Origin: Candidatus Saccharimonadota bacterium
Lineage (GTDB): Bacteria; Patescibacteriota; Microgenomatia; UBA1406; GWC2-37-13
Direction of reading: 5' to 3'
Length of the DNA stretch: 32,000 bases
Assembly: GCA_001790095.1 (NCBI GenBank)
Contig: MGBH01000001.1
Span: forward strand, 990,001-1,022,000
Shown: positions 6,109-30,271 of the stretch, one piece after another
Position numbering within the stretch: position 1 is the first letter of the stretch
Layout: every line of letters begins with the position of its first letter
Program-made: the position numbers and the translations under genes
The notes under the pieces: generated by a model
Database searches by the model: none
What the model saw: the letters and a program-made list of their open reading frames with translations, nothing else
Told to the model about the DNA's origin: nothing

Positions 6109-6111
6109 ATA

Positions 6112-10910: not shown

Positions 10911-10917
10911 ATACGGA

Positions 10918-12276: not shown

Positions 12277-12292
12277 AAATCGATATACAATT

Positions 12293-15200
12293 TTATTGTA
12301 TCTGTTTCCAATCATACATACTTATTGACAAATATGGCAACAAATCAAGATATTGACGTTGATCCATAGCGATAAACAATGATGGTCTTTGTAAATTTTG
12401 AAGTTGCCTTCCGTTTTCAAAGGTAGGCGTACCTGATTGATGAACAAGACCCCCTTTTATTTTAAGGGCAAGGTCTTCAGTATTGCCTGTTGTTACATTG
12501 TTGCCAATCAAAATCGCTTGCACCTCAGTGACAGTTGAGGAGATGGTAATATCTCTTGCAACGATCGCTATTGCAGCATTACCAACCGATGCGCTGTTTA
12601 AATCAATATTGATTCCAATCCTATTCTGATCAGCTACAAGAACAATTTTTTTGTTAACAAAATAAGATGAGTCGTTTATGTCTATGTCACTTCCCACATA
12701 ATAGATTCCATCTCCCACAATATCTGCAAGCTGCGTAATAGTCTTGTATTCCTTACGTGACTTCATATACTCTGCGTATTTTGTTGGAGTAAAGCTATGA
12801 AGCTGTATATAGGATGTGTTATACCAGTTAGGCTCTGAGTATTGAGTCGCATTTGGACCAAGTCTTAGATTGCCAGCACTTAAGATGCCACCTGCATTAT
12901 TCACAATAAGATATTTGTCAAGCGTATCGTCCGTATCTGAGTCTGTATATTTAAGCATGTTGTTGGGGATGATGCTTGACCTGCCAGATCTAAGATTGTC
13001 ATAAGAAACGTTACCCATCTTAAGCCACGATGAGGGAACAGAGAAAAATACAGGAATCGTTGGGACTACGCCGGGTGGCACAATGGGGGTTGGAGTAATA
13101 CTCCCTCCAAACGGTGTAGGGGTGGGAGGAAGCGGTGTTGCGGTTGGAATGGGTGTACTGGTTGGACTCACTTCTCCTGTTGGGATCGGAGTTAGAGTCG
13201 GACCGCCAGGAGTAACAGTTGGGATCGGAGTTAGAGTTGGACCGCCCGGAGTTATGGTTGGAGTCGGGGTCAGAGTTGGTCCGCCCGGAGTTATGGTTGG
13301 AGTCGGGGTCAGAGTTGGTCCGCCCGGAGTTATGGTTGGGGTTGGCGTTGATGTAGGGCCAACGGGTGTTGGAGTTAAAGTTGGCGTTGAAGTTGGAGCG
13401 TTAGTTGGGGTCGGTGTCAGAGTCGGACCGCCAGGAGTTATAGAAGGAGACGGAGTAGGACTCAAAAGACAGATTGTTATTATCTCAAGATACTCCCCTC
13501 CACATTGATTACTTTGACGCCAATCAACATTACCATAATCGCCATAAGTAGCAGAAAGAGTCATGTCAAAGCATGGCGGTATACAATCTCCTCCTTGATT
13601 ATCAACAATAAGGTTGCAACTATAGTTGGAGGGTGTTTTTGTACAAGTAGATGTGACACCAGGAGGTACGGTGACTTGTAGATCAAGCTGGTCCGGATCA
13701 ATATTCATACTTGTACTACAACTTGTACCTAAATCTTCAATATATTTTCCTTGGATATTGATAGTTGGATAGGGAGATGGAGTAGGTATGGTATAGATAG
13801 TAGTAGTCCAGCCTGAGGTATTGGTAAAACTATCCCGCGCCCTTACTCTCCCATAAAAAGTAGTTCCTCCTGGATATGATTGCTGAAGTGCCTGCTGTGT
13901 CGTATTGACCCAACTATTACTCCAACCTGAAGCAAGAGGACTATAGTCACTTTCTGTTGATACCTCTGATTGATATGGAAGAGCATTTAAACCACCACAT
14001 CCTCCATCGGTAGTTGTGTTCCATTTATAAGAGGCAAAATAATTTTCTCGGCAGTCAGGATCCGGATAAATGCTAACAAATGCTGCTCCACCTGGGGGAG
14101 TTGGAGCTGTTTGATCTATTGAAAGAGCGCGGCTTGGTGCAGGAATAGCAGGTGTCGTACATTTGATTGGAGCAGCTGTTGAACGTCCTCGTGCGCCCCA
14201 GTAATAAGTACCTGTACCAGTTACGCTACATGAGGCATAGCTAACAGGATTTGCGCTTGCAAGCCATCCGCTGTTACAACTCCACGGACTACCAAAACCA
14301 GTATCAGTATCTACTCCAAACTGTATCTGGTCTGAACAAGTATCATATGAGGCTGAAAGAGCGGGAATATTATTATAGCAACCTGATGCTGGCGACTGTC
14401 CGCTTACTCCACAGGTTGGAGCTATAAGATTATAGTTATATACTGTCGAACAGGTCTCTGCTGCTCCGTTTGAAGCACATATTTGAGCTGTCCCACTCCA
14501 TGCGCTTAGCGATATAGTATTATCCGTCCTTGCCGTATAGAGAATTCCTGTTTTTACTTCCACCCCGTTGATCAACAAACGGAATTGGTTGGTACGGGTT
14601 CCACATACGTATCCCCATCCTTGACTACACCCGTTGTTGTTATTGGGAAAGGTCCAGTCAACATCATACCGTTGAGTACAACCAGCCGCAGTATATAATG
14701 TCACTGAACTTACTACGGGTTGCAGGGGTGATGAATCAATACAGCAAGAACGTGAATCAGTTCCTCCACATGCAACTGAAGGAGAGCTACATGAACAAGC
14801 ACAGTTATTCTCAGCTCCAGGATTACAGGTTCGCTCTTCATTGCCGGTCCCACATGCAACACTACAAGAACCCCAGCTTCCCCAGCTTGCAGTACGGGTC
14901 GTACCAGCAGGAGTACATGTATCAACTCCTCCATTATAACCAGGTATCCATCCGCATGATGCACCAGTGCATCCGACATGCTGACCCGTACAGGTAAACC
15001 CAGCCCAGCTTGTTTGGCATCCGCTATACGGATAACTTTCTCCTGACTTTATACCCTGAAGAGCTTGTTCATAATAAGTGTCAGGACTTACGCTCACGTA
15101 GATGCTCGGTTGCGCCACCGGAGCAATAAACTGATCTCCTGCAGCGGGTGAATTCCAATCACCAAGTGGGCTTTTGTTTAATCGAACAGCGTATGCAGCA

Positions 15201-15868
15201 GCCCCAGCTAATGTATTCCAAGATATGGCAGCATTTGCTCCCCTTGTAGAACAGGAAACAACCACGTTGCTTGTACAGGGAAGTGGGGTTGGAGTGGGAG
15301 TGGATGTGGGGATGGGAGTAGATGTGGGGATGGGAGTGGATGTGGGGATGGGAGTAGATGTGGGGATGGGAGTAGAGCTGGGAGAAAAAACTGTAGGGAC
15401 GGGAGTAGAGCTGGGAGGAACTGTAGGAACTGGAGTATCTCCAGGCTCTTCAGTAGGACTCACACATGCATCACAACAACCAACTACCGAATTATCTCCC
15501 GATCCACCTATACATGGATAATAGGTACTATATTTAGTTGCACAATTACACAGTCCCCCTGGAACAGTTACTTCACAAACTGAAGAGCAAAGTATTGGAG
15601 AGTCACATCCATGAGTCACATTTGCACAATATCCAGTATCAACAGGCCCTATCCATTGACATGATTCGCAGCATATATCTCCAGGATGGTTCCAGCTATC
15701 ACCACTACAACTAGGTCCTCCTCCTACTCCACAATAACCCACTGGACAATCATAAGCAGCATGTAATAGTGTTGGTTTTATCACAAAAAAACTGAAAACA
15801 AATATGTTCACTATAATGAATAGCATTATTTGTTTATTGCTCTTGTTTTTAACACTTAAGATGTTCAT
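12293..15868 (-). CDS. large secreted/surface protein: Cys-rich N-terminal module, Pro/Thr tandem-repeat linkers, TSP1-like motif, unknown C-terminal domain
   Basis: 1191 aa. N-terminal anchor/signal 'IMLFIIVNIFVFSFFVI'. Dense Cys in residues ~40-135. (STPIPT)n and (TPTPTITPGGPTL)n repeats. 'SWGSWGSCSVACGTGNEERTC' at residues ~327-349. Confidence 0.6.
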   Translation of the reverse strand: MNILSVKNKSNKQIMLFIIVNIFVFSFFVIKPTLLHAAYDCPVGYCGVGGGPSCSGDSWNHPGDICCESCQWIGPVDTGYCANVTHGCDSPILCSSVCEVTVPGGLCNCATKYSTYYPCIGGSGDNSVVGCCDACVSPTEEPGDTPVPTVPPSSTPVPTVFSPSSTPIPTSTPIPTSTPIPTSTPIPTSTPTPTPLPCTSNVVVSCSTRGANAAISWNTLAGAAAYAVRLNKSPLGDWNSPAAGDQFIAPVAQPSIYVSVSPDTYYEQALQGIKSGESYPYSGCQTSWAGFTCTGQHVGCTGASCGWIPGYNGGVDTCTPAGTTRTASWGSWGSCSVACGTGNEERTCNPGAENNCACSCSSPSVACGGTDSRSCCIDSSPLQPVVSSVTLYTAAGCTQRYDVDWTFPNNNNGCSQGWGYVCGTRTNQFRLLINGVEVKTGILYTARTDNTISLSAWSGTAQICASNGAAETCSTVYNYNLIAPTCGVSGQSPASGCYNNIPALSASYDTCSDQIQFGVDTDTGFGSPWSCNSGWLASANPVSYASCSVTGTGTYYWGARGRSTAAPIKCTTPAIPAPSRALSIDQTAPTPPGGAAFVSIYPDPDCRENYFASYKWNTTTDGGCGGLNALPYQSEVSTESDYSPLASGWSNSWVNTTQQALQQSYPGGTTFYGRVRARDSFTNTSGWTTTIYTIPTPSPYPTINIQGKYIEDLGTSCSTSMNIDPDQLDLQVTVPPGVTSTCTKTPSNYSCNLIVDNQGGDCIPPCFDMTLSATYGDYGNVDWRQSNQCGGEYLEIITICLLSPTPSPSITPGGPTLTPTPTNAPTSTPTLTPTPVGPTSTPTPTITPGGPTLTPTPTITPGGPTLTPTPTITPGGPTLTPIPTVTPGGPTLTPIPTGEVSPTSTPIPTATPLPPTPTPFGGSITPTPIVPPGVVPTIPVFFSVPSSWLKMGNVSYDNLRSGRSSIIPNNMLKYTDSDTDDTLDKYLIVNNAGGILSAGNLRLGPNATQYSEPNWYNTSYIQLHSFTPTKYAEYMKSRKEYKTITQLADIVGDGIYYVGSDIDINDSSYFVNKKIVLVADQNRIGINIDLNSASVGNAAIAIVARDITISSTVTEVQAILIGNNVTTGNTEDLALKIKGGLVHQSGTPTFENGRQLQNLQRPSLFIAMDQRQYLDLLPYLSISMYDWKQIQ
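13188..13343 (-). repeat. 4 x 39-bp coding tandem repeat (TPTxTPGGPTLTP units)
   Basis: Units at 13188-13226, 13227-13265, 13266-13304 and 13305-13343. Units 3 and 4 are nearly identical. A partial further unit lies around 13408-13440. Confidence 0.85.
15296..15385 (-). repeat. about 4.5 x 18-bp coding tandem repeat (STPIPT units)
   Basis: gggagtRgatgtggggat repeated from 15296 (15296-15313, 15314-15331, 15332-15349, 15350-15367, then degenerate). Confidence 0.85.
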
Positions 15869-15877
15869 ATATTAAAT

Positions 15878-16687
15878 TCAATCAATTCTATTTACAGTAC
15901 TAAACAGCAATAGATTAGGATCCAAGACACCATTTTCTAGAAAGTTCATTAACGAAGTATGATAATTTGGATCTTCTAAAAAAGGCTTCATTACGTTTTG
16001 ATAGAAAACCCAATTAGAATCCATACCTCTAAGACTGGTAAATTGTAGTAAGATCATTACGTCTCCTCGTTGAGCGTTTGAAGTAAAAGGATGTGATTCT
16101 TCAATAAAGCTTTTCCACCAATTAAAATCTTGTAACTGTTCAGGGGTGGGAGCAAAAGTTATACCCGCCTGACTCATAAATGTCGTTGTGGCTTCTATCG
16201 TCTGTCCATTGATATATATTGTGCCATCAGAAGCTCTCACAACAAGGTTTTGCGCAAAATTGACAACCTGTCCATCTATAACATAACTACCTTGAAATCT
16301 AACCAGTGAGTCTCCTACTCTTTCCTCGTTTAAATATAGAGGTTCTGCCCCATATTCTGCTCCATGATAAAAAGCACGTATATTATACCAATCTGTTCTG
16401 TTGTCTCCGCTTTTGGTAGACGAGGCGAAAACATCTTTATATTTAGAACCAACCTTTATTTCAATCTGTTTGTTTAATGGCAATAATGTGAACTTTTTTT
16501 CTTCTTCCTTTTCGCGGATATACTGAACAAGCAGTATCATAATAAAGACAAATTCGATAAAAAAGATAAAGAAGAATAAAAAGAAAATAGGACTTGGTTT
16601 TTTACGCCTAGCGGTGCGAGAAATATCATTATGAAGCGGGTGATTTACAACCATATATTCATTATAACGCAACTGCAGAAAAATCAA
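15878..16687 (-). CDS. membrane-anchored protein carrying the shared ~177-aa C-terminal domain (paralogous to the C-terminus of the 801-aa lipoprotein)
   Basis: 269-aa track ORF that starts at TTG. The more likely start is ATG 16654 (MVVNHPL...), with TATAAT (16666..16661) 6 nt upstream. TM segment 'IFFLFFFIFFIEFVFIMILLV'. Residues 93-269 are almost identical to the C-terminus of the 17974..20379 product. Confidence 0.6.
   Translation of the reverse strand: MIFLQLRYNEYMVVNHPLHNDISRTARRKKPSPIFFLFFFIFFIEFVFIMILLVQYIREKEEEKKFTLLPLNKQIEIKVGSKYKDVFASSTKSGDNRTDWYNIRAFYHGAEYGAEPLYLNEERVGDSLVRFQGSYVIDGQVVNFAQNLVVRASDGTIYINGQTIEATTTFMSQAGITFAPTPEQLQDFNWWKSFIEESHPFTSNAQRGDVMILLQFTSLRGMDSNWVFYQNVMKPFLEDPNYHTSLMNFLENGVLDPNLLLFSTVNRID
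15899..16413. repeat. 515-bp direct repeat, copy 1 (partner 17998-18512)
   Basis: Constant offset of 2099 nt with no indels. 16015-16413 equals 18114-18512 exactly (399 bp, checked line by line). A ~62-bp patch (15954-16014) carries ~23 substitutions. The distal ~55 bp are identical again. Confidence 0.9.
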
Positions 16688-16712
16688 AGCTAAAAAATAC
16701 TATAATAAAACC

Positions 16713-18002
16713 ATGGTTAGTTATCTTCCAAAAACCATCTTTGTTTTGTTTTTTACCCTTATTTTTTTACTTGAGGGCCTATCTTTTAAAAAAGGAAGAG
16801 AGATCTCATATGTACTTATTTTGTGTATGCCGTCTTTTTTATTTTACCTTCATTTTATGTTTAAAAATAGAATAAAATTAAGCCCGTTTGTGGGGTTTGT
16901 CAGCGCCCTTTATATTGTGTTTGTTTCGTTGTCTGCTCTTTCCTCTAAACAAATAAACGTCTCTATTGAGGGCGTATTACTTACAATTGCAGTCGTCTCA
17001 CTTTTTATTTATTCTTCATACCATAGAGACGAATTACAAAACATAGTCCTTGCTATGATAATGATTTTGTCATTTGTTTTTATCAGTCGTCATGTTTTGT
17101 ACCGATTAATACCAATTGATTTTGGAGGTCTACTTACTTTATCAGCATTTCAGTTTTTTTACTCTTTTTATCCAAACCATAATCAGCTTGGGACTTTTTT
17201 AACTCTTCCAATAATTACATGTTTTTTTTATCTCTTTTTTACTGCACCTTCTGTAAAGACACCAACAAGTGAGTCGTTTATCAAAAAGACAATGTCGTGG
17301 CTTCTTACAAAAAAACATATATTACTTATACTCTTTTACTTTCCTTTTTTTATTTTTTCTTATTCCCGCTCGAGTTACAATTCCGTATTTTGGACCTTTA
17401 TCCTGATGTTGTTCTATAATAGAAAAATTCTTTTTTCAAACAATTTTTTTTCTAAGAAAAAGATCGTTTTTATTATTTTGTTTGGAATCATTGTTTTGCT
17501 TATGTTTTTTATCACTGTAGAAGAAGTAAAAAGTATTCCGATTATATCTTCTCTTCATGTATGGTTACAAAAATATGCAGGTCTCGGTGGAAAAAGTTTT
17601 CTCTCAGGAAGATTCTTAATGTTCTCTGACATGTTACAAAGAGCTGAAGGAAAATACTTATTAGGGCTCGGCAAACCTCTTATATACTCTCAATCATATA
17701 CTCTCCATACAAATATTGGGTGGCCATCCCATAGTCTGATAGTCGACATCATCGCAAAACAGGGTTTGTTAAGTTTTTTTGCTTTTGTATTACTTCATGT
17801 AGTTATATTTGTCAAATCAGATAAAAGAAGTGTTTTTTTCTATCTCTGGATCAACCTTTTCATTAATTTTCTTACAAATTGGAGCTACACATTCTATTCT
17901 TTATATTGTATATACTTTATCCTACCTGGATTGATCCCTGTTATCCTTTCTTCATCTACTCAAAATAAACAATTTATTCGATCATTCTACCCAATTGACT
18001 AA
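16713..18002 (+). CDS. polytopic membrane protein, O-antigen ligase/polymerase (Wzy_C)-like
   Basis: 429 aa with many TM segments. 'FSYSRSSY' and 'SGRFLMFSDML..GLG..WPSHSLIVDIIAKQGLLSFFAFVLL' resemble the Wzy_C pattern (SR..., R..w, G-x-G, aHN.yl..l.e.G..G). TATAAT at 16701-16706 lies 6 nt before the ATG. Confidence 0.5.
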   Translation: MVSYLPKTIFVLFFTLIFLLEGLSFKKGREISYVLILCMPSFLFYLHFMFKNRIKLSPFVGFVSALYIVFVSLSALSSKQINVSIEGVLLTIAVVSLFIYSSYHRDELQNIVLAMIMILSFVFISRHVLYRLIPIDFGGLLTLSAFQFFYSFYPNHNQLGTFLTLPIITCFFYLFFTAPSVKTPTSESFIKKTMSWLLTKKHILLILFYFPFFIFSYSRSSYNSVFWTFILMLFYNRKILFSNNFFSKKKIVFIILFGIIVLLMFFITVEEVKSIPIISSLHVWLQKYAGLGGKSFLSGRFLMFSDMLQRAEGKYLLGLGKPLIYSQSYTLHTNIGWPSHSLIVDIIAKQGLLSFFAFVLLHVVIFVKSDKRSVFFYLWINLFINFLTNWSYTFYSLYCIYFILPGLIPVILSSSTQNKQFIRSFYPID

Positions 18003-20379
18003 ACAGCAATAGATTAGGATCCAAGACACCATTTTCTAGAAAGTTCATTAATGAGGCATGATAAGTTTCATCATTTAAGAAGGATGCCATAAAATTTTGA
18101 TTGAAAGTCCAGCTAGAATCCATACCTCTAAGACTGGTAAATTGTAGTAAGATCATTACGTCTCCTCGTTGAGCGTTTGAAGTAAAAGGATGTGATTCTT
18201 CAATAAAGCTTTTCCACCAATTAAAATCTTGTAACTGTTCAGGGGTGGGAGCAAAAGTTATACCCGCCTGACTCATAAATGTCGTTGTGGCTTCTATCGT
18301 CTGTCCATTGATATATATTGTGCCATCAGAAGCTCTCACAACAAGGTTTTGCGCAAAATTGACAACCTGTCCATCTATAACATAACTACCTTGAAATCTA
18401 ACCAGTGAGTCTCCTACTCTTTCCTCGTTTAAATATAGAGGTTCTGCCCCATATTCTGCTCCATGATAAAAAGCACGTATATTATACCAATCTGTTCTGT
18501 TGTCTCCGCTTTCTTGAGAGGAGATAAAGACATTTTCAAGAGAATCCATACCCTGCTCTTCTGCCATTTCTTGCACTCTTGTTTCCCATAGCTTTGCGTC
18601 AGCTTCTCTAACAACCGATAAATCTGATAGAGCTATCTGAGATGTATCTTTAGGAGTTTGCACCCAGACTGATACATCACGATTTTGATCTACGAAAAAG
18701 GGGTTACTAAGACCAATGGTTATGTCTGCTTCTCCTTCTTGAATAATAGTTACAGAAAGTCCATCTTCTGAGATACGTATTGATCCATCAAATACCGCGC
18801 CTCCGGCAGAGGAAGAAAAACTCGCAAGCTCTGTCCTATCCACACTGCCCCCTCTTTTGCTGATAAACCCTTCGCTTTGCAATATCCAGTTTCCGTCTCT
18901 TTGCAAGAGATACAGCTTATTGCCCGATGATCCGTCTTGAGATGATATAAATACCAAACCGCTTTCATAGGATCCTTCTGTTTGCACTTCCATCTGTGCA
19001 TGCAAAGCTCTGTTTGGATTTGCATCAACAGTAAAACTACCAACCCCTGCACTTTCTCTATAGATAGTTGACTCCCCGATAAGCTGCTGCTCAACGACCG
19101 ATGGCGCATCAATCTGAGGGACTCCATCCAAATTACCCGTATACTCACTTATCGGCATATATGCTGCATGCTGTACTCCATCATTTTCATAGGTTACTAC
19201 AACAAACGTGTCACTGATAACACCTGTTGCTTGTATGACTACTCCCTCTGCTGGTGAGTTAAGTGAGTTTGCAAAAGAGTCAGGCATGTCATATATACGT
19301 AGTGTACCTGTGCTTGTCATCGTTTCAGCTACTTCTCCTGACTCTTGTGTTGATTCTTGTGTCGGTTGCCCTGCTACTGGCTGATCTGCGGCAACGAGCA
19401 TGATATCAGGATTTATACGGGTGACATTGACCCAACTCACCAAAGCTCCATCATTGTTATAATATCCAAGTATGATTTGAGTAGTGGAAGGATCACCGTC
19501 TCCTAAATTGTCATAGGTTAAATAAGGATGAGTGCCTGGCGGCGCCTCAACCACAGCAAGCTCAAGTAGATCATAATCTGTGGCACTTAAGCCCTGAGGT
19601 AAAAGTGATTGAAATGGAAAAAATGTTTGTGCGCTTTCATCCCAAACTTGCGGTAGGATAAAATTATTTGTACCTCTTTCAAAAAAAGCCATTGACCATC
19701 CATCCTGAGGCACTGAACGGGTTATGTAATAATAGTGCTGATCAAACCAACTCTGGATCGCATCATCTGAGGCAGGATCAACCTGTTCGTTTGGGTGAGC
19801 GATATTCCAATCCTGTACCAGCTTATTGGTCATCAGCTGTAGATATTGTGTTGCCAGCTGTGCTCTGTCGGCAGAATATTCTGGGTCCGAGGAATCAAAA
19901 ATGTGCGGTCTATCAGGATCATAATACGTATCAGAACTATCTATGTGTGATCCCATCCTGCTCACATTTACCCCATCAGGAATCGGTGCAAAATTGCTTG
20001 AGCTTGCTGGATATGCATAAACAAGTTGGCTTTCTGGAGTATTTGTTACAGTTGAAGTAGCTGTAGATTCTTGGGTATTAGTAGCGTGTAAAGTAGGCGT
20101 AGCCCTTTCTTGAGTTGAAGTAGCTGACGCTGTAACTGTGGGAGTAGCAGTATCAGTAGCTGTAGATGTAGATGTAGCTGTAGCTGTCTCAGTTTCGGGT
20201 GCTCCTGGACTTCCGCATCCTGCCAACACCAATGATGCTGCAGCAGGCATTGCCACTCTTGCAATAGGAGATCTCATTATCTGTCCACCATAAACAGCTG
20301 GCTTTACACCAGCTCCGTTTACGTTACTAATTGCACTTTTATCAAGGTTTTTTGAATGACGCGTATGCAACTCACCCAT
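17974..20379 (-). CDS. surface lipoprotein with Thr/Ser/Ala-rich linker and shared C-terminal domain
   Basis: 801-aa track ORF. The likely true start is ATG 20277 (MRSPIARVAMPAAASLVLAGC, lipobox LAGC), preceded by GGTGGA. Low-complexity 'ETETATATSTSTATDTATPTVTASATSTQERATPT' follows the lipobox. The last ~178 aa are shared with the 15878..16687 product. Confidence 0.65.
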   Translation of the reverse strand: MGELHTRHSKNLDKSAISNVNGAGVKPAVYGGQIMRSPIARVAMPAAASLVLAGCGSPGAPETETATATSTSTATDTATPTVTASATSTQERATPTLHATNTQESTATSTVTNTPESQLVYAYPASSSNFAPIPDGVNVSRMGSHIDSSDTYYDPDRPHIFDSSDPEYSADRAQLATQYLQLMTNKLVQDWNIAHPNEQVDPASDDAIQSWFDQHYYYITRSVPQDGWSMAFFERGTNNFILPQVWDESAQTFFPFQSLLPQGLSATDYDLLELAVVEAPPGTHPYLTYDNLGDGDPSTTQIILGYYNNDGALVSWVNVTRINPDIMLVAADQPVAGQPTQESTQESGEVAETMTSTGTLRIYDMPDSFANSLNSPAEGVVIQATGVISDTFVVVTYENDGVQHAAYMPISEYTGNLDGVPQIDAPSVVEQQLIGESTIYRESAGVGSFTVDANPNRALHAQMEVQTEGSYESGLVFISSQDGSSGNKLYLLQRDGNWILQSEGFISKRGGSVDRTELASFSSSAGGAVFDGSIRISEDGLSVTIIQEGEADITIGLSNPFFVDQNRDVSVWVQTPKDTSQIALSDLSVVREADAKLWETRVQEMAEEQGMDSLENVFISSQESGDNRTDWYNIRAFYHGAEYGAEPLYLNEERVGDSLVRFQGSYVIDGQVVNFAQNLVVRASDGTIYINGQTIEATTTFMSQAGITFAPTPEQLQDFNWWKSFIEESHPFTSNAQRGDVMILLQFTSLRGMDSSWTFNQNFMASFLNDETYHASLMNFLENGVLDPNLLLFSQLGRMIE
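17998..18512. repeat. 515-bp direct repeat, copy 2 (partner 15899-16413)
   Basis: See copy 1. Confidence 0.9.
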
Positions 20380-20418
20380 ATTTTTGAGATCGGAAAATAT
20401 AACCTATATTAATAGTAT

Positions 20419-20447
20419 ATTATCTCATAGTTTTGTCAAGCTGTCAA
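20419..20447 (-). promoter_or_regulatory. sigma70-type promoter, TTGACA-17 nt-GATAAT, upstream of the lipoprotein gene
   Basis: On the minus strand: TTGACA (20447..20442), a 17-nt spacer, then GATAAT (20424..20419). A second overlapping TTGACA lies at 20439..20434. Confidence 0.55.
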
Positions 20448-20493
20448 TGATTTTTCGCTTTCCAACGGTCTATACATAACAAATATGTATATG

Positions 20494-23400
20494 CTACATC
20501 ACGTTCTGAAACTGCATTTTTTGTAACATCTCCATGACTCTTTCATTCCAAATAGCGCCTTGTTGTGCGGGGGTTAGACTGGCGACTTTTCCTTCAATAT
20601 CTTCCAGTCTGAAAAAATAATACGCTTCATCCAACACGTCCTGGAAATCACTCCACATTTCCCGCTTCATTTCATCAGCCATAGCTTCTTTCCCCGCTCT
20701 CATCCTGTCTGGTAGATTCGAGGCTGCCTCTGTCACAGCAAGAACACCTGAAGGTAAAACCTGAATCTTTCCTCGGACATGAGGCGGGAGCTGAACCTGA
20801 GCTGTTCCTAGCTTGGCTACTGCAAGTCCTAATGGAGTTCGACCCTCAGCCATATGGATGCCATGAGATTCGCGCACGCGAGCTGGTAAAAACTCATCAA
20901 GCCATGATCCTGCAAAGGTGATTTGAGGTAATTTTAGACCCGCTTTTATAAGACTTTCTGACCCTCCTTGTGGAGGAGCGGGTTCAATAAGAATTTGCCC
21001 CTTGTGCGGATCTATTGTCTTTTTAACCGAGCGTTCTGACAGCTCCGTCATAACTCTCACATATTGGTCCAACTTCCCCATAAATGCCATCTGCCACTCA
21101 CGAAGCCGTACATCTTTGATACCTATGTCAAGCAATGCCCTTTTTCTTTCTTCCTCTTGAGCACGAAGGTGAATGAGGTGCTCTTGAAACAGCTCTGTTT
21201 GCGCTTCATTGTCTCCCTTGATAGCCTGTTTCCAAAGATATTCAAATCGTTTGAGGCGTTTTTCGTGGAGCATATCTGCTCCATAGGCCCATTGTGTCAG
21301 GGGCGGTATAGATATCCTATCTATTAAATAAGCATTAGCAGGATCTCTTATATCTTTTTCTGATAATATCAAGTGTCGTAATCCTGGAATATCGCCCCTG
21401 CCTACACGCTGCAATTCTTGCCAAAGCTCGCGCTCAGTTGTGGCTCCTGACACAAATACCTCAGGCCCTCCCCGATCAATCACAGCCTCTTCCAGATTGT
21501 CCAATTGAAAATCCCGACGCGTCATTTGGCTCGTGATGACGATCGTGCCTGCGGTACAACCTGTTAAGGCCTTTTGAAGCGAACCACGCTCTTCAAGCTC
21601 TTCAGATGCAGTCACGACCCGAAGCCATGGTGGCCTCTCTATAGGAAGAGCTACTTGTGAGCTATCTCCTAGTTTTATTTGACGAAGCACCCGAAGTGCT
21701 CTCGGCCCACTAATTTCACGTTCTGCTTCTTCCATACTAACTACTCTCTGCTCCACTGTGTCTTCCTTACCCTTACCCTTACTAAGAAGTAAAAGGTGTT
21801 TTAAGATTTCTTCCTCCCTTGCCTCCATACTTTCTTGATTAATGAGTATTGATCCAGATTCATTTAACATTTTGATCGCTTGTTCTAAAAGATGTGCCTC
21901 CTGTGCATCGCGCATGATAAAAAGACCAACTCTTCCTTCTCTTTGGATACGTTTTGCCTCTTGAAAAAGCCTAAGCATTTTTCTTTCCTCAGATACAAAC
22001 ATCACATCAGCCAATCCTCCATCTAGACAGGTGGTTTGAAGGGTGTCGATTTTGTGTTTTGGCTGTCTTACCTGTTCATGCCTTTCTATTCTCAACACCT
22101 CAGCCTCATAAATATCCGCATAAGAGGATGCTACAGGGATAAGAGAACCTGAGGTAAATCTCAGCTTTTTATATTGTTTAAAGAGCTCAATAGGCGCTAC
22201 ACTATTGGTCGTACGCGACACCTTCATCTCATTAACAACTCGGTCGTAAAGGAGTTGAAACTGCGCATTGTCAATCCCCCTTTCTTTTTTTTCGTCCTGC
22301 TCCCATATGTTTTTTAACCGCAAAAAGACTTCATGTAAACCCTCAAGTTGTCTCTTTTGAAGAGGAAAGCCGCTCTCATCAAGGAGCGTTGCTTCTTTAC
22401 CGCCCAGATACTGCTTCTGCTCCTCTGATGCAAAAACGGTTTCAAGGGCACATCTGATCATGTCTGCGTCCTGCTCAACTATCACGTGTCTTGTTTGTGT
22501 ACCTCCACTTTGCGGGTCGGTTGAAAACTTAAAATATGATTGATTAATCTTGCTTAATACATCCTGAAGAATAGCTGAGGCTCTGTTATATGCTCTTTCT
22601 GATAGTTTTATGTGATCTCCTGCTTTAAAATAGTCCCTACCCTCACCTTCTTCAAAAAGATCCTTATATTCATATAGAGCATCCCAAAAACTAATAAGTA
22701 TTTCTTGTGTAATCTCTTGTCTTAAATCAGAAGGCATTGTCTTTCTTTCGAAACCCTTTATTTCTTGCATGGTTCTATCTCTTAAAGAGGAGGGTTTTCG
22801 TTTTTTTCTAGATTTTCTTATTTCTTGCGCAAGCCTATTTCGTTCCTCAACAGGCATTATGTCTTGTTCTCTTTGAACCTCTCTTATTCCCATCCATTTA
22901 TCAATATATTCCCATGCTTTTGCTCCCTGGATCGTCTCACTTTGGATCCATGTCTCATGGGCACGATCAAGCATCTCATCATCTGCTTCCTGCACAAGCG
23001 CTATTCTCCCCTGTTTGCTGTAAAAACCCGGGTCAATGGCTGTCACAGTTTTACCTGGTTGATAGTATTGAGACGCATGATCAAGATAAGTAAAACCGAC
23101 AGCATCAGTGGTTGCATATAGTATGGTGCTGTCCCAAACTTCCTGATGAGCTTTCTTGCCTTTTTGGGGGACTAGTTTACCGTTTTTATATATATACTCC
23201 AACCTTGTCCCCACAGGATCTCCTCCCCTCTCATTTTCTTCAACAGATAGATCTGTAGCCACACCTACTCTTATCCCGAGTTTTTTTGAATAAAAATCTC
23301 CTATGTTTTCTGCATGCTCCAAAGCTTTTGCATAAGATTGTTCAAGGATATGAACTTTTTCTCCCTGAAGGGCAAACATTGCTGCGATAAGCGCATTGGC

Positions 23401-25086: not shown

Positions 25087-26352
25087 ATGCATATAATATT
25101 TCTACTTTTAATCCTTGTTCTTAAACTTCCCTCATTTTACTTTCTGCCTTCCTCATCTTCCCTATTTACAAGCCACTCCCTAGTAAAAATAGGGGTCGTG
25201 CTTATTGCTATGTATATGTTGTACGATGAAAAAATTCGAAGAGCGGCAGGGCGAGCAGTTTTGTCAAACATGCCAATTATCCTTTTCTTGTTTTCGCAAT
25301 CAATCTCAGTCATATGTGCGAAAGATGTTGGATTGTTTTGGAAAAGTTACCATAATTTACTTATCAGCATCCTTATCTTTTTTAAGGCTGCGCTGTTGTT
25401 TGGAAAAAGAAGAAATCTTATTGTCCGTTTTTTATTTTTAGTTGCCATTATAACGACAGGGCTTGAAGTGGCTCTATATCTTGTCCCCAAAGATCTATTC
25501 AGACTCTTGCCTTTTCAGAGCGAAATCCTTGATGCCTTTATCGTTAATCTTGACCGCAACAGATTTTCATTTGAGTCTCATAATGAATTTTTACTTCTTG
25601 TTTTGTTGTTTGTTTCTTTTACTTCCTTGTCCAAAAAAAGGAGATTCGTTGGCCTGATCATAAGCGTAGTATTGATCGCTTTATCGTTTTATTCATCAAA
25701 TCGCACTCGACTCATTTCGCTTATGGGTGCGTTGATATTTTTTATAGTTTCTTTTTTCCATCTTCGTTTCATAAATCATAAGGGAAGATCTGCTAATATT
25801 GTCTTTACTCTTATAGCTGCTTTTGTCTTTGTATTTATTCTATTTCCTCCAAGAGCAATGTTTGAAAGAATTTTTGCTCCCTCTGAGTCCTCTGATTATG
25901 AAACGATTATTTTCCGTATCGATTCGATCAAACACTCTGCTTTACTTCTTCAATCTTCTCCCTTGCTGGGGGTTGGTCTTGGAAACTACCCCCTATATCC
26001 AGCAATACATAGATATGTCCCACCATATGAATTTGGCAAATCAGCTCAAAACAGATATGACAAAGCTGTTCCAGCCTCACCACACAATATATTTGCTCAA
26101 GTTGGTGCTGAGACAGGAATTGTTGGTTTGGGATCGTTTGTTTTCCTCATTTTCTGGTTTATCAGAAAAGACGTAGAGATGTGGCGAAAAGGTAAAGACA
26201 TAAAGATGGTGCTTTCGTTTTGTTCGTGGATTATATTCTTAACTTTTCTTTTCAACCCATCTCATACACTGTATATATCTGGATGGTTTTGGTTTTTAAG
26301 AGGAGTTATTTATTCTAAAAATCATTCAATCCCCTTGATCACAAAATCATAG
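25087..26352 (+). CDS. O-antigen ligase family (Wzy_C domain) membrane protein; PglL/WaaL-like
   Basis: 421 aa, polytopic. 'YSSNRTRLISLMGA', 'GVGLGNY' and 'SPHNIFAQVGAETGIVGLGSFVFLIFWF' match the Wzy_C signature well. TGTATAAT lies at 25063-25070 upstream. Confidence 0.7.
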   Translation: MHIIFLLLILVLKLPSFYFLPSSSSLFTSHSLVKIGVVLIAMYMLYDEKIRRAAGRAVLSNMPIILFLFSQSISVICAKDVGLFWKSYHNLLISILIFFKAALLFGKRRNLIVRFLFLVAIITTGLEVALYLVPKDLFRLLPFQSEILDAFIVNLDRNRFSFESHNEFLLLVLLFVSFTSLSKKRRFVGLIISVVLIALSFYSSNRTRLISLMGALIFFIVSFFHLRFINHKGRSANIVFTLIAAFVFVFILFPPRAMFERIFAPSESSDYETIIFRIDSIKHSALLLQSSPLLGVGLGNYPLYPAIHRYVPPYEFGKSAQNRYDKAVPASPHNIFAQVGAETGIVGLGSFVFLIFWFIRKDVEMWRKGKDIKMVLSFCSWIIFLTFLFNPSHTLYISGWFWFLRGVIYSKNHSIPLITKS

Positions 26353-27203
26353 AAAGAGTAGTGTGGGGTAGTGATAGTCAGGTATTTTCCCGGAATCAGT
26401 GTCTGCTCTTGGGCAAAGATAAGATTGCCGTCTTTTTGCTCCACCATAACCTTGGCTTTTACGGTGATGCTTATTCTTTGGGATGAAACAGAGGGGTCAA
26501 TAAAACGACCCTGCTCGACAGCAAAAGCCTGCGTATCGTCCCCCACGGCTTTTTCAGTAATTTTAAATACCGCATCTGTACCATCAAAATAGGTATCTCC
26601 CACACGTATGCTTTCATACTCCCACGGATGGGCATATTTTTTTTCTAAAGTAACTGTTTTGTGTTCGTAAACCTCACGAAAAGGAACCGTATCTATCTGC
26701 GTAACCGTGCCGCTTATAAAAGATGATGAAAGATCCAACTCAATCGGCATCCCCACACTTATGGGAGATCTTTTAAAACTATAGCTTCCGGATCTTCCCA
26801 TGCTTGTCACTTTGAGACGGGTTGTGATATATACATCAAACTGGTTGGTGATTCCGTTTATTGATCCCCATGGATAATAACGCACCGACAAAATCTCTGC
26901 AACTGGTTTGCCAATTATGTCTTTCTCGAGAACATTATTTTTTATAGCTTTGACAAACCAGACAGGAGCTTTTGCAGTTGAAGCCCACCACATACCCTGT
27001 CCAAGCTTGACTCTTGCATATATATAGGTTGGCTTTGTCACAAACAGTTTATATAGAGAAACTAATCCTACAGACAGTATGCAAAGGATAAAGATCCCAA
27101 CGATATAGTTTTTGTAAAATAAATGAAGAAGTTTCTTAATAGCTCTTTTGTTCCTTTTTGTCTTCATATGCGTATAATATAGCAAATGAAACACAAATCT
27201 CAA
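26322..27203 (-). CDS. membrane-anchored hypothetical protein
   Basis: 293-aa track ORF. The likely start is ATG 27167 (MKTKRNKRAIKK...). Single TM 'IVGIFILCILSVGLVSLYKLF', followed by a beta-rich extracytoplasmic region. No family recognised with confidence. Confidence 0.5.
   Translation of the reverse strand: MRFVFHLLYYTHMKTKRNKRAIKKLLHLFYKNYIVGIFILCILSVGLVSLYKLFVTKPTYIYARVKLGQGMWWASTAKAPVWFVKAIKNNVLEKDIIGKPVAEILSVRYYPWGSINGITNQFDVYITTRLKVTSMGRSGSYSFKRSPISVGMPIELDLSSSFISGTVTQIDTVPFREVYEHKTVTLEKKYAHPWEYESIRVGDTYFDGTDAVFKITEKAVGDDTQAFAVEQGRFIDPSVSSQRISITVKAKVMVEQKDGNLIFAQEQTLIPGKYLTITTPHYSFYDFVIKGIE
27173..27179. promoter_or_regulatory. overlapping divergent -10 boxes (TATAAT on +, TATTAT on -) in an 18-bp divergent gap
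   Basis: Plus strand: TATAAT at 27173-27178, 7 nt before ATG 27186. Minus strand: TATTAT at 27179..27174, 6 nt before ATG 27167. Confidence 0.35.
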
Positions 27204-28013
27204 ACCCTATTGCCTCAATCTGAAGTGATACTTTTTATTGCTGGGTTTTATATCAGGATTATTTTTGAACCATTTGAATTCCTATACGGCCAACAACAGT
27301 TTATGAAAGACTTTCTCACTATGTATGCAGGATTCATCATCAAAGGACCCATACCAAAAACTGATTATTTACTTCGAATTATTCATGCAAAAAACTTGAT
27401 TACATTATTCCGTAAGAAGGAAAACCTAGAGTTTATTTTATATGTAAAAAATATGAAAGAAAATCGCTGTACTACTTTTCATCATATAAGCTCCTCTCAA
27501 CTTCAAACACTTTTTAGAAAAATCCTTCTTGCTCTTTTGGCAAAACATGACGGGTTCCTTTTACATACGTCTGCGGTAAAGATTAATCGCTTAGCATATC
27601 TTTTTTTGGGAAAGCCTTATGCTGGCAAATCAACCTCAATGAAGCTCCTAAAAAGTAGTTATCCGCCTCTTGCTGATGATACGGGATTTATAAGGAAAAT
27701 AAACAATGATTATCTTTTCTTTCAAACTCCTTTTGTTGAAAAAGAGCATTGGATAAAAAAAGGATGGCGAGGGCTTGCTTTAGGGAAACTGTGTTTCTTG
27801 CGCAAATCCAAATCCTTTCATCTGAAAAAGATTGCTGATAAACATGATGTTTTACATCTGTTAATGCGGCAATTTTTTACTGAACAAGAGCATGCAAAAA
27901 AACAGACAGACTACCTTTTTGACTTTGTAAAAGGGTTTGATGAGTTTTATATACTTTCTTTTGCGAAAGATAAAAGAAAATTTATTGAATTTATGACCAC
28001 TCATGCGATATAA
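27186..28013 (+). CDS. HPr-kinase-C-terminal-domain-like P-loop protein (HprK-related kinase)
   Basis: 275 aa. 'FLLHTSAVKINRLAYLFLGKPYAGKSTSMKLLKSSYPPLADDTGFI' parallels the HprK/P core (hG..v...g.gvLi.G.SG.GKSe.al.L...g..LvaDD.v.i). The stop overlaps the PqqD-like start by 11 nt. Confidence 0.6.
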   Translation: MKHKSQTLLPQSEVILFIAGFYIRIIFEPFEFLYGQQQFMKDFLTMYAGFIIKGPIPKTDYLLRIIHAKNLITLFRKKENLEFILYVKNMKENRCTTFHHISSSQLQTLFRKILLALLAKHDGFLLHTSAVKINRLAYLFLGKPYAGKSTSMKLLKSSYPPLADDTGFIRKINNDYLFFQTPFVEKEHWIKKGWRGLALGKLCFLRKSKSFHLKKIADKHDVLHLLMRQFFTEQEHAKKQTDYLFDFVKGFDEFYILSFAKDKRKFIEFMTTHAI

Positions 28014-28266: not shown

Positions 28267-29485
28267 GAATGACCCGTATATTTTGGAATATCACCCAATA
28301 TGCAGCATAAATAACTTGCGGATCCGCAAAGATTTGCACCTTTTTGCTCCAATGGTTTGGTGATAGGTGATACAGATACATAAACCTTTCTATACCAGCT
28401 TTGATTCGTGTTTGATCATCAAATACTACTGTGTGCAAAATCTTTTTATTAAAATATATTTTGTACTGCTTTTCTATAGGAATTCCTTTTATGAGAGAAC
28501 TTAAAAAAGGGGCCGTTTCGGGAAAATATTTTTTAAGTAGAAGAAAAGTAGCATATATATAGTTTTGCATTCTCAGTGTTTTAATTTTTTCTTGTATTGA
28601 ATGAACGTATCGCTCGCTTTTTTTACTTCTAACTATTTTACGTAATAACTCTAGTCGAAAAACTCCTCTATAGTTATGGTGAAAAAAGTGAAGTGCAAGA
28701 TAGATAATAAGATTTTCGGTAGAAAGGATGGGAATCGAATACTCCTGAATTATTATGGTCCTTTTTTCATTGAGACACATATCAGTAAATACGTCTATGA
28801 GGCTCTGTGGATATAGATTTTCAGATCGACTAAGTTGCGTCATCATAAACACTGCCTCTCTATGAAGATCAAATACTACGAACATTCCGTTGATGATTTT
28901 ATAATATGCGTTTTCTACTGTTTTACCTTGGAGTTTTTTCTGGGTTTGAGAGAGCGCTGTGTCTGATTTTTTATATCCTGTACTTAACAGGACCTCTTCT
29001 GCTTTTAAAAAATCTTCTTTTTTTACCAAAAAATCACAGTCCATATATATCCTTTGAGGGTGGGTTTTTTCAAAGTGTAGATGAAGAGGTAGCCCTTTAA
29101 GGATTACAAACTCTATTTTTTCTTTTTTGAATTTTTCCGCAAGGATCACTATTTGCTGGAAATAGAGAGTTGATTGTACAAGATAAAGGTCTTGAATTTG
29201 GACAATCTCTCCGTTTCTTTTTATGCTTTTAACTTTTGCAACCACTTGATCTGCTCTTATCTTTCCATCTGACTTGAGATTGTTGTCGCCTTTGGTAATA
29301 AGGTATTTCTTATGTCTGTCTTTGTATATAACCCTATGGGCAAAAAGAGTTGCTTGTTTTCTTGTGATTAGTATGTCGTTTATTTTGATATTGATTTTTT
29401 CCCGAGGGTCATAGAAGATAGTATCTTTAGTTTTAATAAGAGGATACATGCTCATACCTAACGAGCGTATGGATGATAGGGTCAT
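28220..29485 (-). CDS. fusion protein: SipW/Sec11-type (S26B) signal-peptidase-like domain + 'uncharacterised nucleotidyltransferase' (NTP_transf_5-like) domain
   Basis: 421 aa. N-terminal ~100 aa carry 'GMSMYPLIKTKD', 'AHRVIYKD' and 'ITKGDNNLKSDG', the S26B Ser/His signature order, with no preceding TM segment. The remainder has 'VILKGLPLHLHF..PQRIYMDCDFLV', typical of the nucleotidyltransferase family (KG...R..DiDlLV). Confidence 0.6.
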   Translation of the reverse strand: MTLSSIRSLGMSMYPLIKTKDTIFYDPREKINIKINDILITRKQATLFAHRVIYKDRHKKYLITKGDNNLKSDGKIRADQVVAKVKSIKRNGEIVQIQDLYLVQSTLYFQQIVILAEKFKKEKIEFVILKGLPLHLHFEKTHPQRIYMDCDFLVKKEDFLKAEEVLLSTGYKKSDTALSQTQKKLQGKTVENAYYKIINGMFVVFDLHREAVFMMTQLSRSENLYPQSLIDVFTDMCLNEKRTIIIQEYSIPILSTENLIIYLALHFFHHNYRGVFRLELLRKIVRSKKSERYVHSIQEKIKTLRMQNYIYATFLLLKKYFPETAPFLSSLIKGIPIEKQYKIYFNKKILHTVVFDDQTRIKAGIERFMYLYHLSPNHWSKKVQIFADPQVIYAAYWVIFQNIRVILISLVRRFFPFSRAV

Positions 29486-29501: not shown

Positions 29502-29678
29502 CTACTCTGAACATAATGATCCAAAACAATAAGTCCCCGAACAACAAGATGTTGTACCCCCCCCACAGTTACACGCAGCAAGTAGTTCTTCTGAATTTAA
29601 AGAAAACCTTCTCGTAAGAAATAAAGTGGAAGCAGATTTCTTTTTTATTATTGGTTTATAATATCTATGTTTTTTCAT
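29502..29678 (-). CDS. unlisted 58-aa ORF: candidate RiPP precursor (basic leader + 6-Cys Gly/Ser/Thr-rich core)
   Basis: Manual translation: MKKHRYYKPIIKKKSASTLFLTRRFSLNSEELLAACNCGGGTTSCCSGTYCFGSLCSE*. ATG at 29678..29676 overlaps the TGA stop of the upstream gene (ATGA overlap). Stop TAG at 29504..29502, 16 nt before the peptidase/NTase fusion gene. Below the apparent ~60-aa floor of the ORF track. Confidence 0.55.
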   Translation of the reverse strand: MKKHRYYKPIIKKKSASTLFLTRRFSLNSEELLAACNCGGGTTSCCSGTYCFGSLCSE

Positions 29679-30271
29679 CGATCAACAGTAATTATTATCT
29701 TTACAATAGCCTGCGTAATGGTAGGATCCTCAAACGGGTTCTCCTCAGTAGTAATGGTAATATGATCATCTTCTTTAATGGTAGAAGCATCAATTTGCTC
29801 TCCCTTCCCGTTTTGGACAGTGAATTTACTATCTTTTGCATAATAATACCGTGTTGAGGTTTTGCCATCTTCATACACTAAATTAAAAGCAATCTCATAC
29901 GCCTTCCCATTCTTTGTCTTTCCTTGAACAGATAGATCTTTCGCCCGACCCTTTTCCTCAAATAAAAGACGAGCTGTTCGCCCTGTTGAGGCGTTGTACT
30001 TTGAGAGCATAGTAATATATTTTGGATGTATTGCGCCGAGTTTTTTGTTTGGAAAAGGAGTCAAATAAGTTTGACACACATAGCTGTTTGGGTCTTTGTT
30101 TAGATATCCTTTTGTTTCTTCAGTTTTTGCAGGTAACGTTATGGTCTTTGTAGAGGTATAATAATACCATCCCACCTCACCGAGTGTAATAGTAAGAAGT
30201 ATAAAGAAGACGACAAGAAGGATTTTGTTTACGTTTCCCATATGTTTTAAGTGTAGGGCCGAGAGGGGCAA
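29675..30271 (-). CDS. membrane-anchored hypothetical protein
   Basis: 198-aa track ORF that starts at TTG. The likely start is ATG 30241 (MGNVNKILLVVFFILLTITL...). Single N-terminal TM. No family recognised. Confidence 0.5.
   Translation of the reverse strand: MPLSALHLKHMGNVNKILLVVFFILLTITLGEVGWYYYTSTKTITLPAKTEETKGYLNKDPNSYVCQTYLTPFPNKKLGAIHPKYITMLSKYNASTGRTARLLFEEKGRAKDLSVQGKTKNGKAYEIAFNLVYEDGKTSTRYYYAKDSKFTVQNGKGEQIDASTIKEDDHITITTEENPFEDPTITQAIVKIIITVDR

Follow-up and report, generated by a model that had tools for sequence, protein, structure and literature searches.

Linear polyphosphorylated peptides (LPPs), first described in May 2026, when their occurrence was stated to be confined to Bacillota, are known from the LppA/K/B/S/D/N system of Paenibacillus alginolyticus (Popov et al., Nat Commun 2026;17:6633; PMC13381572). 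Here, we compare this system with a locus in a 32,000-nucleotide stretch of a Microgenomates genome of the candidate phyla radiation (CPR), namely positions 990,001 to 1,022,000 of contig MGBH01000001.1 (hereafter the window, with positions counted from its first letter). A neighboring protein with a 100%-identical match assigns the window to Candidatus Roizmanbacteria bacterium RIFOXYC2_FULL_38_9. Within the window, a 58-codon open reading frame (ORF) at 29502-29678 had been put forward, in what we call the original prediction, as a lanthipeptide-like precursor of a peptide made by the ribosome and modified after translation (RiPP). From sequence comparison and analogy, we conclude with a probability of about 0.75 that this ORF is the gene for the precursor (A) in a ribosomal peptide pathway of the LPP type.

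In the Bacillota system, LppA is the precursor, LppK an HprK-like kinase, LppB a discrete RiPP recognition element (RRE), LppS an archaeal-type signal peptidase, LppD an MsbA-like exporter, and LppN a member of the NTP_transf_5 family (PMC13381572). LppA carries the motifs [Y/W]xxPx[L/V/I/F/A] and Px9Fx[T/A], with YxxPxVLxHQxIxFETxxS as the full consensus, and LppB binds the Y-x-x-P-x-V segment, its D70 bonding the Tyr and its N33 fixing the kink at the Pro (PMC13381572). LppK places several phosphates onto core Ser3, and LppS (S29/H68/D93), shown by experiment to be the leader peptidase, cuts after F-E-T only when LppB presents the peptide; the peptide retains its phosphates, and the study reports no products of −18 Da (PMC13381572). 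In paeninodin-like lasso clusters, a PF14907-family nucleotidyltransferase (NTase) was already known to be fused to the leader peptidase B2 (PMC8498205).

THE 58-CODON ORF AND ITS PEPTIDE FAMILY

The gene and the predicted parts of its product are as follows.

29502..29678, minus strand: unannotated precursor peptide gene (LppA-like), 58 codons plus stop (ORF and family of 39 distinct peptides)
29613..29678, minus strand: leader block 1 (M1-T22) with a basic N-terminus (family column counts and the LppA motifs of PMC13381572)
29646-29663, minus strand: predicted RRE-binding motif Y6-Y7-K8-P9-I10-I11 (family column counts)
29577..29591, minus strand: leader block 2, E30-E31-L32-L33-A34, corresponding to the family motif [DE]-x-x-h-L-A (position-specific scoring matrix [PSSM] scan of the family)
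29505..29576, minus strand: core ACNCGGGTTSCCSGTYCFGSLCSE with 6 Cys in the framework CxC-x6-CC-x4-C-x4-C (ORF translation; framework also in the relative P0126)

Read from 29678 to 29502, the ORF begins with an ATG at 29676-29678, ends with a stop codon at 29502-29504, and translates as MKKHRYYKPIIKKKSASTLFLTRRFSLNSEELLAACNCGGGTTSCCSGTYCFGSLCSE (ORF listing), whereas plus-strand translation of 29502-29678 gives stops throughout. This is exactly the product originally predicted, to which the strand, then missing, can now be added, and it is indeed unannotated: no gene record in the public gene-call collection contains it. The two observations behind the proposed operon were likewise seen, as the ATG overlaps the TGA of the upstream gene (ATGA; ...ACT GTT GAT CGA TGA), which encodes 188/198 aa, and 16 nt lie between the ORF and the start (29485) of a downstream gene encoding a peptidase fused to an NTase. 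The last 23 residues of the 58-aa peptide contain 6 Cys, 4 Ser, 3 Thr, and 5 Gly, matching the earlier count.

The peptidase-NTase fusion has at least 415 relatives. An alignment of 20 fusion homologues served to retrieve 74 loci from species-representative genomes, and we counted the window as the 75th locus; their flanks were limited to 6 kb, and absences are therefore soft. Where a lineage was named, the 74 loci almost always belonged to Roizman-, Gottesman-, Levy-, Woese-, or Beckwithbacteria or to "Microgenomates/Patescibacteria." Many loci (e.g., L001, L002, L004, and L007) are titled "uncultured Gammaproteobacteria bacterium" (third-party annotation co-assemblies) and one (L024) "Omnitrophota"; their gene content is that of Microgenomates, which makes the titles look like labelling errors or placeholders.

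In 13 loci, a small ORF occupied a position like that in the window, between a gene for a ~180-aa membrane protein and the fusion gene, and an N-terminal motif was common to all 13. A leader hidden Markov model (HMM) built from these peptides, which had been chosen by position alone, was searched against 20,746 stop-to-stop translated segments of the loci and recovered further members at E = 1e-8 to 1e-4 (36 hits after one iteration). Including weaker hits added by hand, the family comprises 39 distinct sequences of 39-185 aa in 35 of the 75 loci (window counted). The original prediction had named the presence of the peptide beside homologous cassettes as a check, and these relatives occupy the same syntenic position. 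A profile HMM was needed to find them: a strict leader regular expression found only 4 peptides, a Cys-count filter upstream of the fusion gene only 3, and a word-indexed homologue search with the window peptide nothing.

Anchored on the Pro (39/39), the family columns contain Tyr at P-3 (38/39), Lys at P-1 (31/39), and hydrophobic residues at P+2 (39/39), P+7 (38/39), P+9 (33/39), and P+12 (37/39), with basic residues between them; the leader consensus is KK-Y-x-K-P-x-I-K-x-K-K-I-K-L-N-F-F. In block 1 of the window leader, the RRE motif is followed by an alternating basic/hydrophobic strand that runs to L19-F20-L21-T22, and the basic N-terminal part described earlier is borne out. The second block, [DE]-x-x-h-L-A, lies 19-40 residues past the Pro in nearly all family members (PSSM scan). 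The tails beyond it are hypervariable and often have 6 Cys: ~15 peptides have 4-9 residues and no Cys there, ~18 have Cys-rich tails, 3 have Gly/Ser-rich ones, and 3 carry a Hint/intein-type domain. In roughly one half of the family, the h-L-A motif is not followed by any Cys.

A phmmer search of 1.84 billion proteins revealed P0126 (55 aa), which is 44% identical to the window peptide with all six Cys aligned, its framework, CxC-x5-CCSG-x2-C-x4-C, corresponding to that of the window peptide. The other five of the six hits were long Thr/Ser/Gly-rich repeat proteins matched by composition and were discounted, leaving P0126 as the sole true relative in that search. On the P0126 contig, convergent PqqD and ScmC/HprK-like genes follow, together with a 39%-identical copy of a 293-aa protein of the window (described below). 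Substitution patterns had also been suggested as a check, and 13 of the 27 residues identical between P0126 and the window peptide use different synonymous codons. Because of the family-wide conservation, these synonymous codon changes, and the same gene context in P0126, we regard the 58-codon ORF as a real, selected, unannotated protein-coding gene.

The three members with a Hint/intein-type domain fused after the leader (L003:1728-2327(+), L039:1-467(-), and L050:2707-3297(-); PF14890 and PF07591 above cut-off) share one layout, in which the leader and the h-L-A block are followed by a Cys-containing stretch of 6-15 residues and then by the Hint domain. Because such a domain would generate a thioester at the C-terminus of the upstream peptide, these fusions suggest C-terminal activation chemistry in part of the peptide family.

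LEADER RECOGNITION, CLEAVAGE SITES, AND FATE OF THE CYS RESIDUES

Judged by sequence, the conserved recognition motif is of the lasso/pyrroloquinoline quinone (PQQ)/LPP type, Y-x-x-P-x-[I/L/V] (Y6-P9-I11). The original prediction had read FSLNSEEL as a leader box of the FNLD type, which we could not uphold: this region varies in sequence and length across the family and forms just one portion of a motif of a sub-family, RF-h-[DN]-S-x-[DE]-x-L, whereas the constant leader positions are the Tyr, the Pro, and the hydrophobic strand positions.

Signal peptidases require a small residue at P1. The most likely cleavage site, by analogy, lies at h-L-A-[AGS] (A34|A35 or A35|C36) and is favored because this is the best conserved motif, has a small P1 residue, and fits the F-3/x/[T/A]-1 pattern of LppA. 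The cut proposed earlier, LLAA|C, falls on this most conserved downstream motif and agrees with our placement to within one residue, the exact bond being a predicted one and a second candidate site existing. That alternative, F20-L21-T22|R23, would be position-homologous to F-E-T| of LppA, one residue further from the Pro, and its small residue is not conserved (9-17 of 39 peptides). It was kept as a candidate because cutting at h-L-A-[AGS] would leave products of 4-9 residues in ~15 family members.

The number of Cys is even in 16 of 20 family cores (p = 0.012), and some Cys-rich relatives have few or no partners for lanthionine formation: one (L067) has 6 Cys with 1 core Ser/Thr and another (L052) 4 Cys with 0. 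Because of these even counts and the scarcity of core Ser/Thr, the Cys residues more likely form disulfides than lanthionines.

ENZYMES OF THE CASSETTE

The predicted enzymes and the RRE are encoded downstream of the precursor gene.

29186..29485, minus strand: S26B-type (archaeal/SipW-like) signal-peptidase domain, predicted leader peptidase (TIGR02228, LppS BLASTP)
29450-29452, 29336-29338, and 29267-29269, minus strand: predicted catalytic residues S12, H50, and D73, respectively, of the peptidase (aligned to LppS)
28523..29179, minus strand: PF14907 (NTP_transf_5) NTase domain fused to the peptidase (Pfam); the whole gene spans 28220-29485 and encodes 421 aa
28003..28266, plus strand: discrete PqqD-type RRE of 87 aa, whose gene converges on and overlaps that of the peptidase-NTase (PF05402)
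27186..28013, plus strand: HprK-like peptide kinase (LppK-like), 275 aa, with Walker A GKPYAGKST (LppK BLASTP; weak HPr-kinase match)

The S26B-like peptidase that had been proposed in the next gene is supported by a match to TIGR02228 (E = 1.7e-12, 47.5 bits, below the cut-off of 51.85) and by 36% identity to LppS over 95 aa (BLASTP, E = 3e-15), with S12/H50/D73 aligned to S29/H68/D93 and invariant or nearly so in 20 homologues. In an AlphaFold2 model of the fusion protein (predicted local distance difference test [pLDDT] score, 88), the N-domain resembles SEC11A (7p2p_A), SipA, and LexA. The NTase domain matches PF14907, the Pfam family of LppN and PbaN, at E = 2.2e-20 (73.8 bits, cut-off 31.2), its G131 and D149-x-D151 are invariant among 20 homologues, and its modeled fold resembles LnuA, ANT(2'')-Ia, and the nucleotidyltransferase-like protein 5uvd. 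LnuA and ANT(2'')-Ia nucleotidylate hydroxyls of small molecules.

The PqqD-like RRE, also part of the original prediction, is present at 28003-28266 and matches PF05402 (E = 3.4e-11, 43.7 bits, cut-off 23.4); lasso_PqqD models match below threshold, and among solved structures, its best matches are TbiB1 and TfuB1, both lasso B1 proteins. Its N32 and D69 align to N33 and D70 of LppB and are kept in 49/51 and 51/51 CPR homologues, respectively. PqqD was found in 58 of the 75 loci.

The kinase is 33% identical to LppK over 110 aa (BLASTP, E = 6e-12), with the LppK sequence, like that of LppN, rebuilt from a PDF alignment and perhaps containing small errors. Members of the kinase family match TIGR04249 ScmC (10/11) and TIGR00679 (8/11) and also HprK_rel_A/B (TIGR04352/5). 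Searched against PDB, the kinase-family profile gave mostly P-loop matches to ABC ATPases, HPr kinase 1ko7 (E = 2.4e-4) being the sole hit to reach beyond the P-loop. The domain tables of the LPP study use TIGR02228, PqqD, NTP_transf_5, and TIGR04249, i.e., models that match the window proteins (PMC13381572). At the level of sequence, the analysis shows which parts make up the cassette, the motif conserved in the leader, and the catalytic residues.

The kinase is present in 32 of 35 loci with the peptide versus 10 of 40 loci without it (odds ratio 32, Fisher p = 5e-9). Moreover, a unit consisting of a membrane-protein gene, the peptide gene, and a convergent kinase gene is present twice in three loci (L021, L022, and L026). 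Two further loci (L035 and L040) have two precursors, each with its own partner gene, but one kinase detected; in all five of these loci, a single peptidase-NTase gene is seemingly common to both precursors.

THE MEMBRANE PARTNER AND OTHER NEIGHBORING GENES

Two genes for membrane-anchored proteins border the cassette.

29675..30241, minus strand: gene for the membrane-anchored partner, 188 aa when counted from the ATG, with an in-frame extension up to a TTG at 30271; its stop codon overlaps the precursor start
26322..27203, minus strand: conserved membrane-anchored protein, 293 aa, possible accessory (divergent from the kinase gene; 34 of 75 loci)

In 29 of the 35 loci with a peptide, a partner homologue immediately precedes the peptide gene, mostly overlapping it. 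The homologue alignment reveals a beta domain containing a DLKxGD motif, besides a transmembrane helix and a linker. The partner had no Pfam, NCBIfam, or PADLOC match, and a word-indexed search returned the protein itself only, so no alignment-based model could be made; the single-sequence AlphaFold2 model was poor (pLDDT 49.5) and unfit for a fold search. The partner evolves too fast for word-indexed search. The 293-aa protein, which also lacks Pfam, NCBIfam, and PADLOC matches, may be a further cassette component, and a 39%-identical copy stands beside the kinase in L075.

Proteins of ~420-460 aa with a QueC-like PP-loop domain and, at the C-terminus, a PqqD (RRE) domain were observed in three loci (L051:1779-3047(+), L055:1415-2791(+), and L059:2916-4157(+)). 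They adjoin membrane-partner homologues in L055 and L059, with none found in L051, and may represent a different peptide-modifying enzyme with the same kind of partner.

Farther away in the window are genes for a Wzy_C protein (23852-26352), a GT4 glycosyltransferase (16713-18002), another membrane protein without family, and PBP2. Across the 75 loci, Wzy_C/O-antigen-ligase-like genes occur beside the cassette in 30 and GT4 genes in 16. An ABC exporter (PF00005, ~630 aa) adjoins the cassette in 9 of 74 loci, e.g., directly upstream of the membrane-protein gene in L067 and L012. These exporters were found by jackhmmer; a simple regular expression for the ABC signature found none because the signature motif is degenerate.

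Domain content was assessed by Pfam scans of 24 window ORFs, comprising 22 of the 23 ORFs of ≥90 aa in 1..22000 plus the cluster ORFs, and all statements below on missing enzyme domains refer to this set, in which several large ORFs have no Pfam match. The latter include minus-strand ORFs at 12293-15868 (1191 aa) and 17974-20379 (801 aa), along with those at 2860-4080 (406 aa) and 4141-5007 (288 aa). The product of 20494-23919 (minus strand, 1141 aa) gave a weak, stretched SecA_DEAD match (residues 89-589 versus 243 profile positions) and appears to be an atypical SecA-like protein. No tRNA was found in a scan of the window, no PADLOC defence model matched, and no compositional island surrounds the cluster; promoter and terminator scans did not rise above background and were set aside.

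COMPARISON WITH LPP CLUSTERS AND OTHER PEPTIDE PATHWAYS

The enzyme families of LPP clusters recur in the cassette: its kinase is HprK-like, its discrete PqqD RRE has the Asn/Asp pair, its signal peptidase is of archaeal type with a Ser/His/Asp triad, and its NTase belongs to PF14907. The precursors are alike in their N-terminal YxxPx[V/I/L], their hypervariable C-terminus, and their length (35-200 aa in LPP, 39-185 aa here). Neither kind of cluster has a lasso cyclase, and both lie amid glycan/cell-envelope genes, the Wzy_C and GT4 surroundings here paralleling Bacillota LPP clusters embedded in capsular-polysaccharide loci.

The differences concern lineage (CPR/Microgenomates rather than Bacillota), architecture, leader, and core. 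Unlike in LPP clusters, S and N are fused into one protein, and an additional membrane-anchored protein gene is translationally coupled to the precursor. The leader has a basic amphipathic strand and a second [DE]xxhLA block in place of VLxHQxIxFET|AQS, while the cores are Cys-rich or very short instead of Gly/Asn/Pro/Lys-rich, with a Hint domain in some relatives. The MsbA-like ABC exporter is absent from the window and linked in only 9 of 74 loci. In the part of the LPP data set that we consulted (BLASTP hits, February 2019), no Microgenomates peptidase-NTase fusion is listed (PMC13381572). Taken together, these features mark the predicted CPR cassette as a variant of the LPP pathway with altered leader, architecture, and cores.

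Paeninodin and pseudomycoidin lasso peptides resemble this system in having an HprK-like kinase that acts on the precursor, a PF14907 NTase, and a B1-type RRE that reads [Y/W]xxP (PMC8498205). Here, in contrast, there is no macrolactam cyclase, a serine S26B peptidase replaces the B2 cysteine protease, and the C-terminal Ser targeted by the paeninodin/pseudomycoidin kinases is not conserved in the CPR family. PqqD/PqqA, TbiB1, and TfuB1 share the winged-helix RRE fold and the aromatic-x-x-Pro-x-hydrophobic leader motif, but the downstream chemistry of PQQ and lasso pathways is unrelated, neither a PqqE radical-SAM enzyme nor a cyclase being found here.

The modeled peptidase domain agrees with SipW/Sec11 (S26B) peptidases in its fold and Ser-His-Asp residues, with human SEC11A and Streptococcus pyogenes SipA as structural neighbors. 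It differs from them in the absence of an N-terminal membrane anchor, in the position of the catalytic Ser (residue 12), and in the NTase fusion, and its predicted substrate is a leader held by the RRE in the cytoplasm, not a Sec signal peptide. SCIFF/ranthipeptides and class I lanthipeptides likewise have a short precursor with a Cys-rich C-terminal core, but the present cassette lacks radical-SAM/Lan enzymes and has another leader motif.

ALTERNATIVE EXPLANATIONS

The rival that survives best, although still an unlikely one, is that of a secreted Cys-rich peptide (bacteriocin- or signal-like) left unmodified by the kinase and NTase, which would instead serve envelope/glycan genes (Wzy_C, GT4), with the peptidase alone or no enzyme acting on the peptide. 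The location of the cluster amid Wzy_C, GT4, and PBP2 genes agrees with this explanation, as do the peptidase-NTase genes at the 40 of 75 loci where no peptide was detected and the lack of a fixed phospho-acceptor position. However, the kinase tracks the peptide and not the fusion enzyme (the 32/35 versus 10/40 association above) and was co-duplicated with the peptide. In addition, the Tyr/Pro-binding residues of the PqqD RRE are intact and the leader has the matching YxxP, which implies peptide-directed enzymes, and the kinase is homologous to LppK, which phosphorylates LppA.

The lanthipeptide proposal, in which an FNLD-type box is read by an RRE-containing dehydratase and dehydrated Ser/Thr are joined to the six Cys, appears very improbable. 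A core rich in Cys, Ser, and Thr and the semi-conserved sub-family motif RF-h-[DN]-S-x-[DE]-x-L speak for it, and so does the kinase in the cassette, since kinase-initiated dehydration exists in class III/IV lanthipeptides. The scanned window ORFs, however, contained no LanB, LanC, LanM, LanKC, LanL, lyase, cyclase, radical-SAM, YcaO, or lasso cyclase domain, which also removes the basis for the earlier analogy with RRE-containing lanthipeptide dehydratases. The constant leader motif is YxxPxI and not the FNLD-like stretch, the Cys and Ser/Thr numbers of the Cys-rich relatives described above hardly fit general lanthionine cross-linking, and the homologous LPP system keeps its phosphates on the peptide. 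As a result, the original prediction holds as a RiPP-precursor reading, supported by the RRE, the S26B peptidase, and the operon logic, but not in its lanthipeptide assignment, given the YxxPxI leader and the missing dehydratase/cyclase.

There is only a slim chance that the ORF encodes the precursor of a lasso peptide, with its cyclase and B2 protease located at another place in the genome. The leader YxxP motif, the lasso B1 proteins as best database/PDB matches of PqqD, and the presence of a kinase and an NTase, typical of paeninodin-type clusters, would fit such a precursor. Against it stand the absence of an Asn-synthetase-like cyclase and a transglutaminase-like B2 from the scanned window ORFs, gene censuses of the 74 loci that turned up no third conserved large enzyme, the different leader peptidase (S26B) fused into the cassette, and the many cores that are 4-9 residues long or have no acidic ring-closing residue at positions 7-9.

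Finally, a chance ORF, as short ORFs are plentiful in AT-rich DNA, or a lipoprotein-type signal peptide, as L33-A34-A35-C36 fits the lipobox pattern, can be dismissed as barely credible, because the family is conserved in a fixed syntenic position with synonymous changes at conserved residues, and because the charged TRRFSLNSEE precedes the lipobox-like site with no hydrophobic h-region (for which reason the lipoprotein reading of L-A-A-C was rejected) and the motif is not followed by a Cys in about half of the family.

THE PROPOSED LPP-TYPE PATHWAY

Several observations weigh against an LPP-type pathway. The modification, cleavage, and expression steps are drawn by homology with one characterized Bacillota system, in which no LppN activity was detected and no final product or function was found (PMC13381572). 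Pairwise similarity is weak between the NTase domain and LppN (E = 0.1, with LppN rebuilt from the PDF alignment) and between PqqD and LppB (E = 0.034), the latter being no closer than TbiB1/TfuB1. The window leader departs from the full LPP consensus, with P-x10-F-L-T one residue longer and no fixed Ser following, and no position after either candidate cleavage site is a fixed Ser/Thr in the family of 39. The window peptidase lacks ~10 N-terminal residues found in all 19 aligned homologues: only 11 residues precede S12 (29453-29485, minus strand), with an in-frame stop just upstream, compared with ~20 in the homologues, and the corresponding N-terminal helix of LppS contacts the RRE-leader sheet (PMC13381572). 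Furthermore, 40 of 75 loci with the fusion enzyme have no peptide within the fetched flanks, and there is no ABC transporter among the window ORFs scanned.

Under an LPP-type pathway, the RRE would bind Y6-x-x-P9-x-I11 as an added beta strand, with Asp69 bonding the Tyr and Asn32 fixing the kink at the Pro, and would hand the peptide to the kinase, which would (poly)phosphorylate a Ser or Thr. The S26B-like domain (S12/H50/D73) would then cut off the leader in an RRE-dependent manner, probably in the cytoplasm because it has no N-terminal membrane anchor, and the fused NTase might attach a nucleotide or a sugar-phosphate, either to the phosphate or to a hydroxyl, as PsmN does in pseudomycoidin. 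A 23-24-residue core with 6 Cys would be exported and oxidized to about three disulfides, while the coupled membrane protein would act as the cognate partner, e.g., in immunity, as a receptor, or as an export helper. The hypervariable cores and the duplicated partner-peptide-kinase units suggest a role in inter-cell conflict or recognition.

A bolder proposal, which we offer tentatively and consider doubtful as a whole, is a chemically distinct RiPP class rather than LPP in another phylum: a Cys-rich peptide tagged by kinase and NTase, cross-linked by disulfides or in some other way, and made with its own membrane partner, with partner-peptide-kinase units that duplicate and diversify and, in some lineages, a Hint-activated C-terminus. 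Genome-reduced episymbiotic CPR bacteria might use such peptides in interactions with hosts or competitors.

IMPLICATIONS

To our knowledge, RiPP pathways have rarely been reported from CPR bacteria, and our literature searches found no earlier description of a CPR cassette with a peptidase-NTase, kinase, RRE, and precursor. The predicted kinase/RRE/signal-peptidase/NTase logic is widespread in Microgenomates, with the peptide in at least 35 of 75 related species-level loci, and its precursor genes are systematically absent from annotations. The CPR version would combine a different leader grammar with fused enzymes, an additional membrane partner, and hypervariable 6-Cys cores. It offers dozens of natural substrate variants for working out the final products of LPP-type pathways, and the compact peptidase-NTase fusion may help reveal the activity of LppN. 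For the Microgenomates themselves, whose relations with their hosts are little understood, these peptides are candidates for secreted effectors or for peptides that serve recognition.

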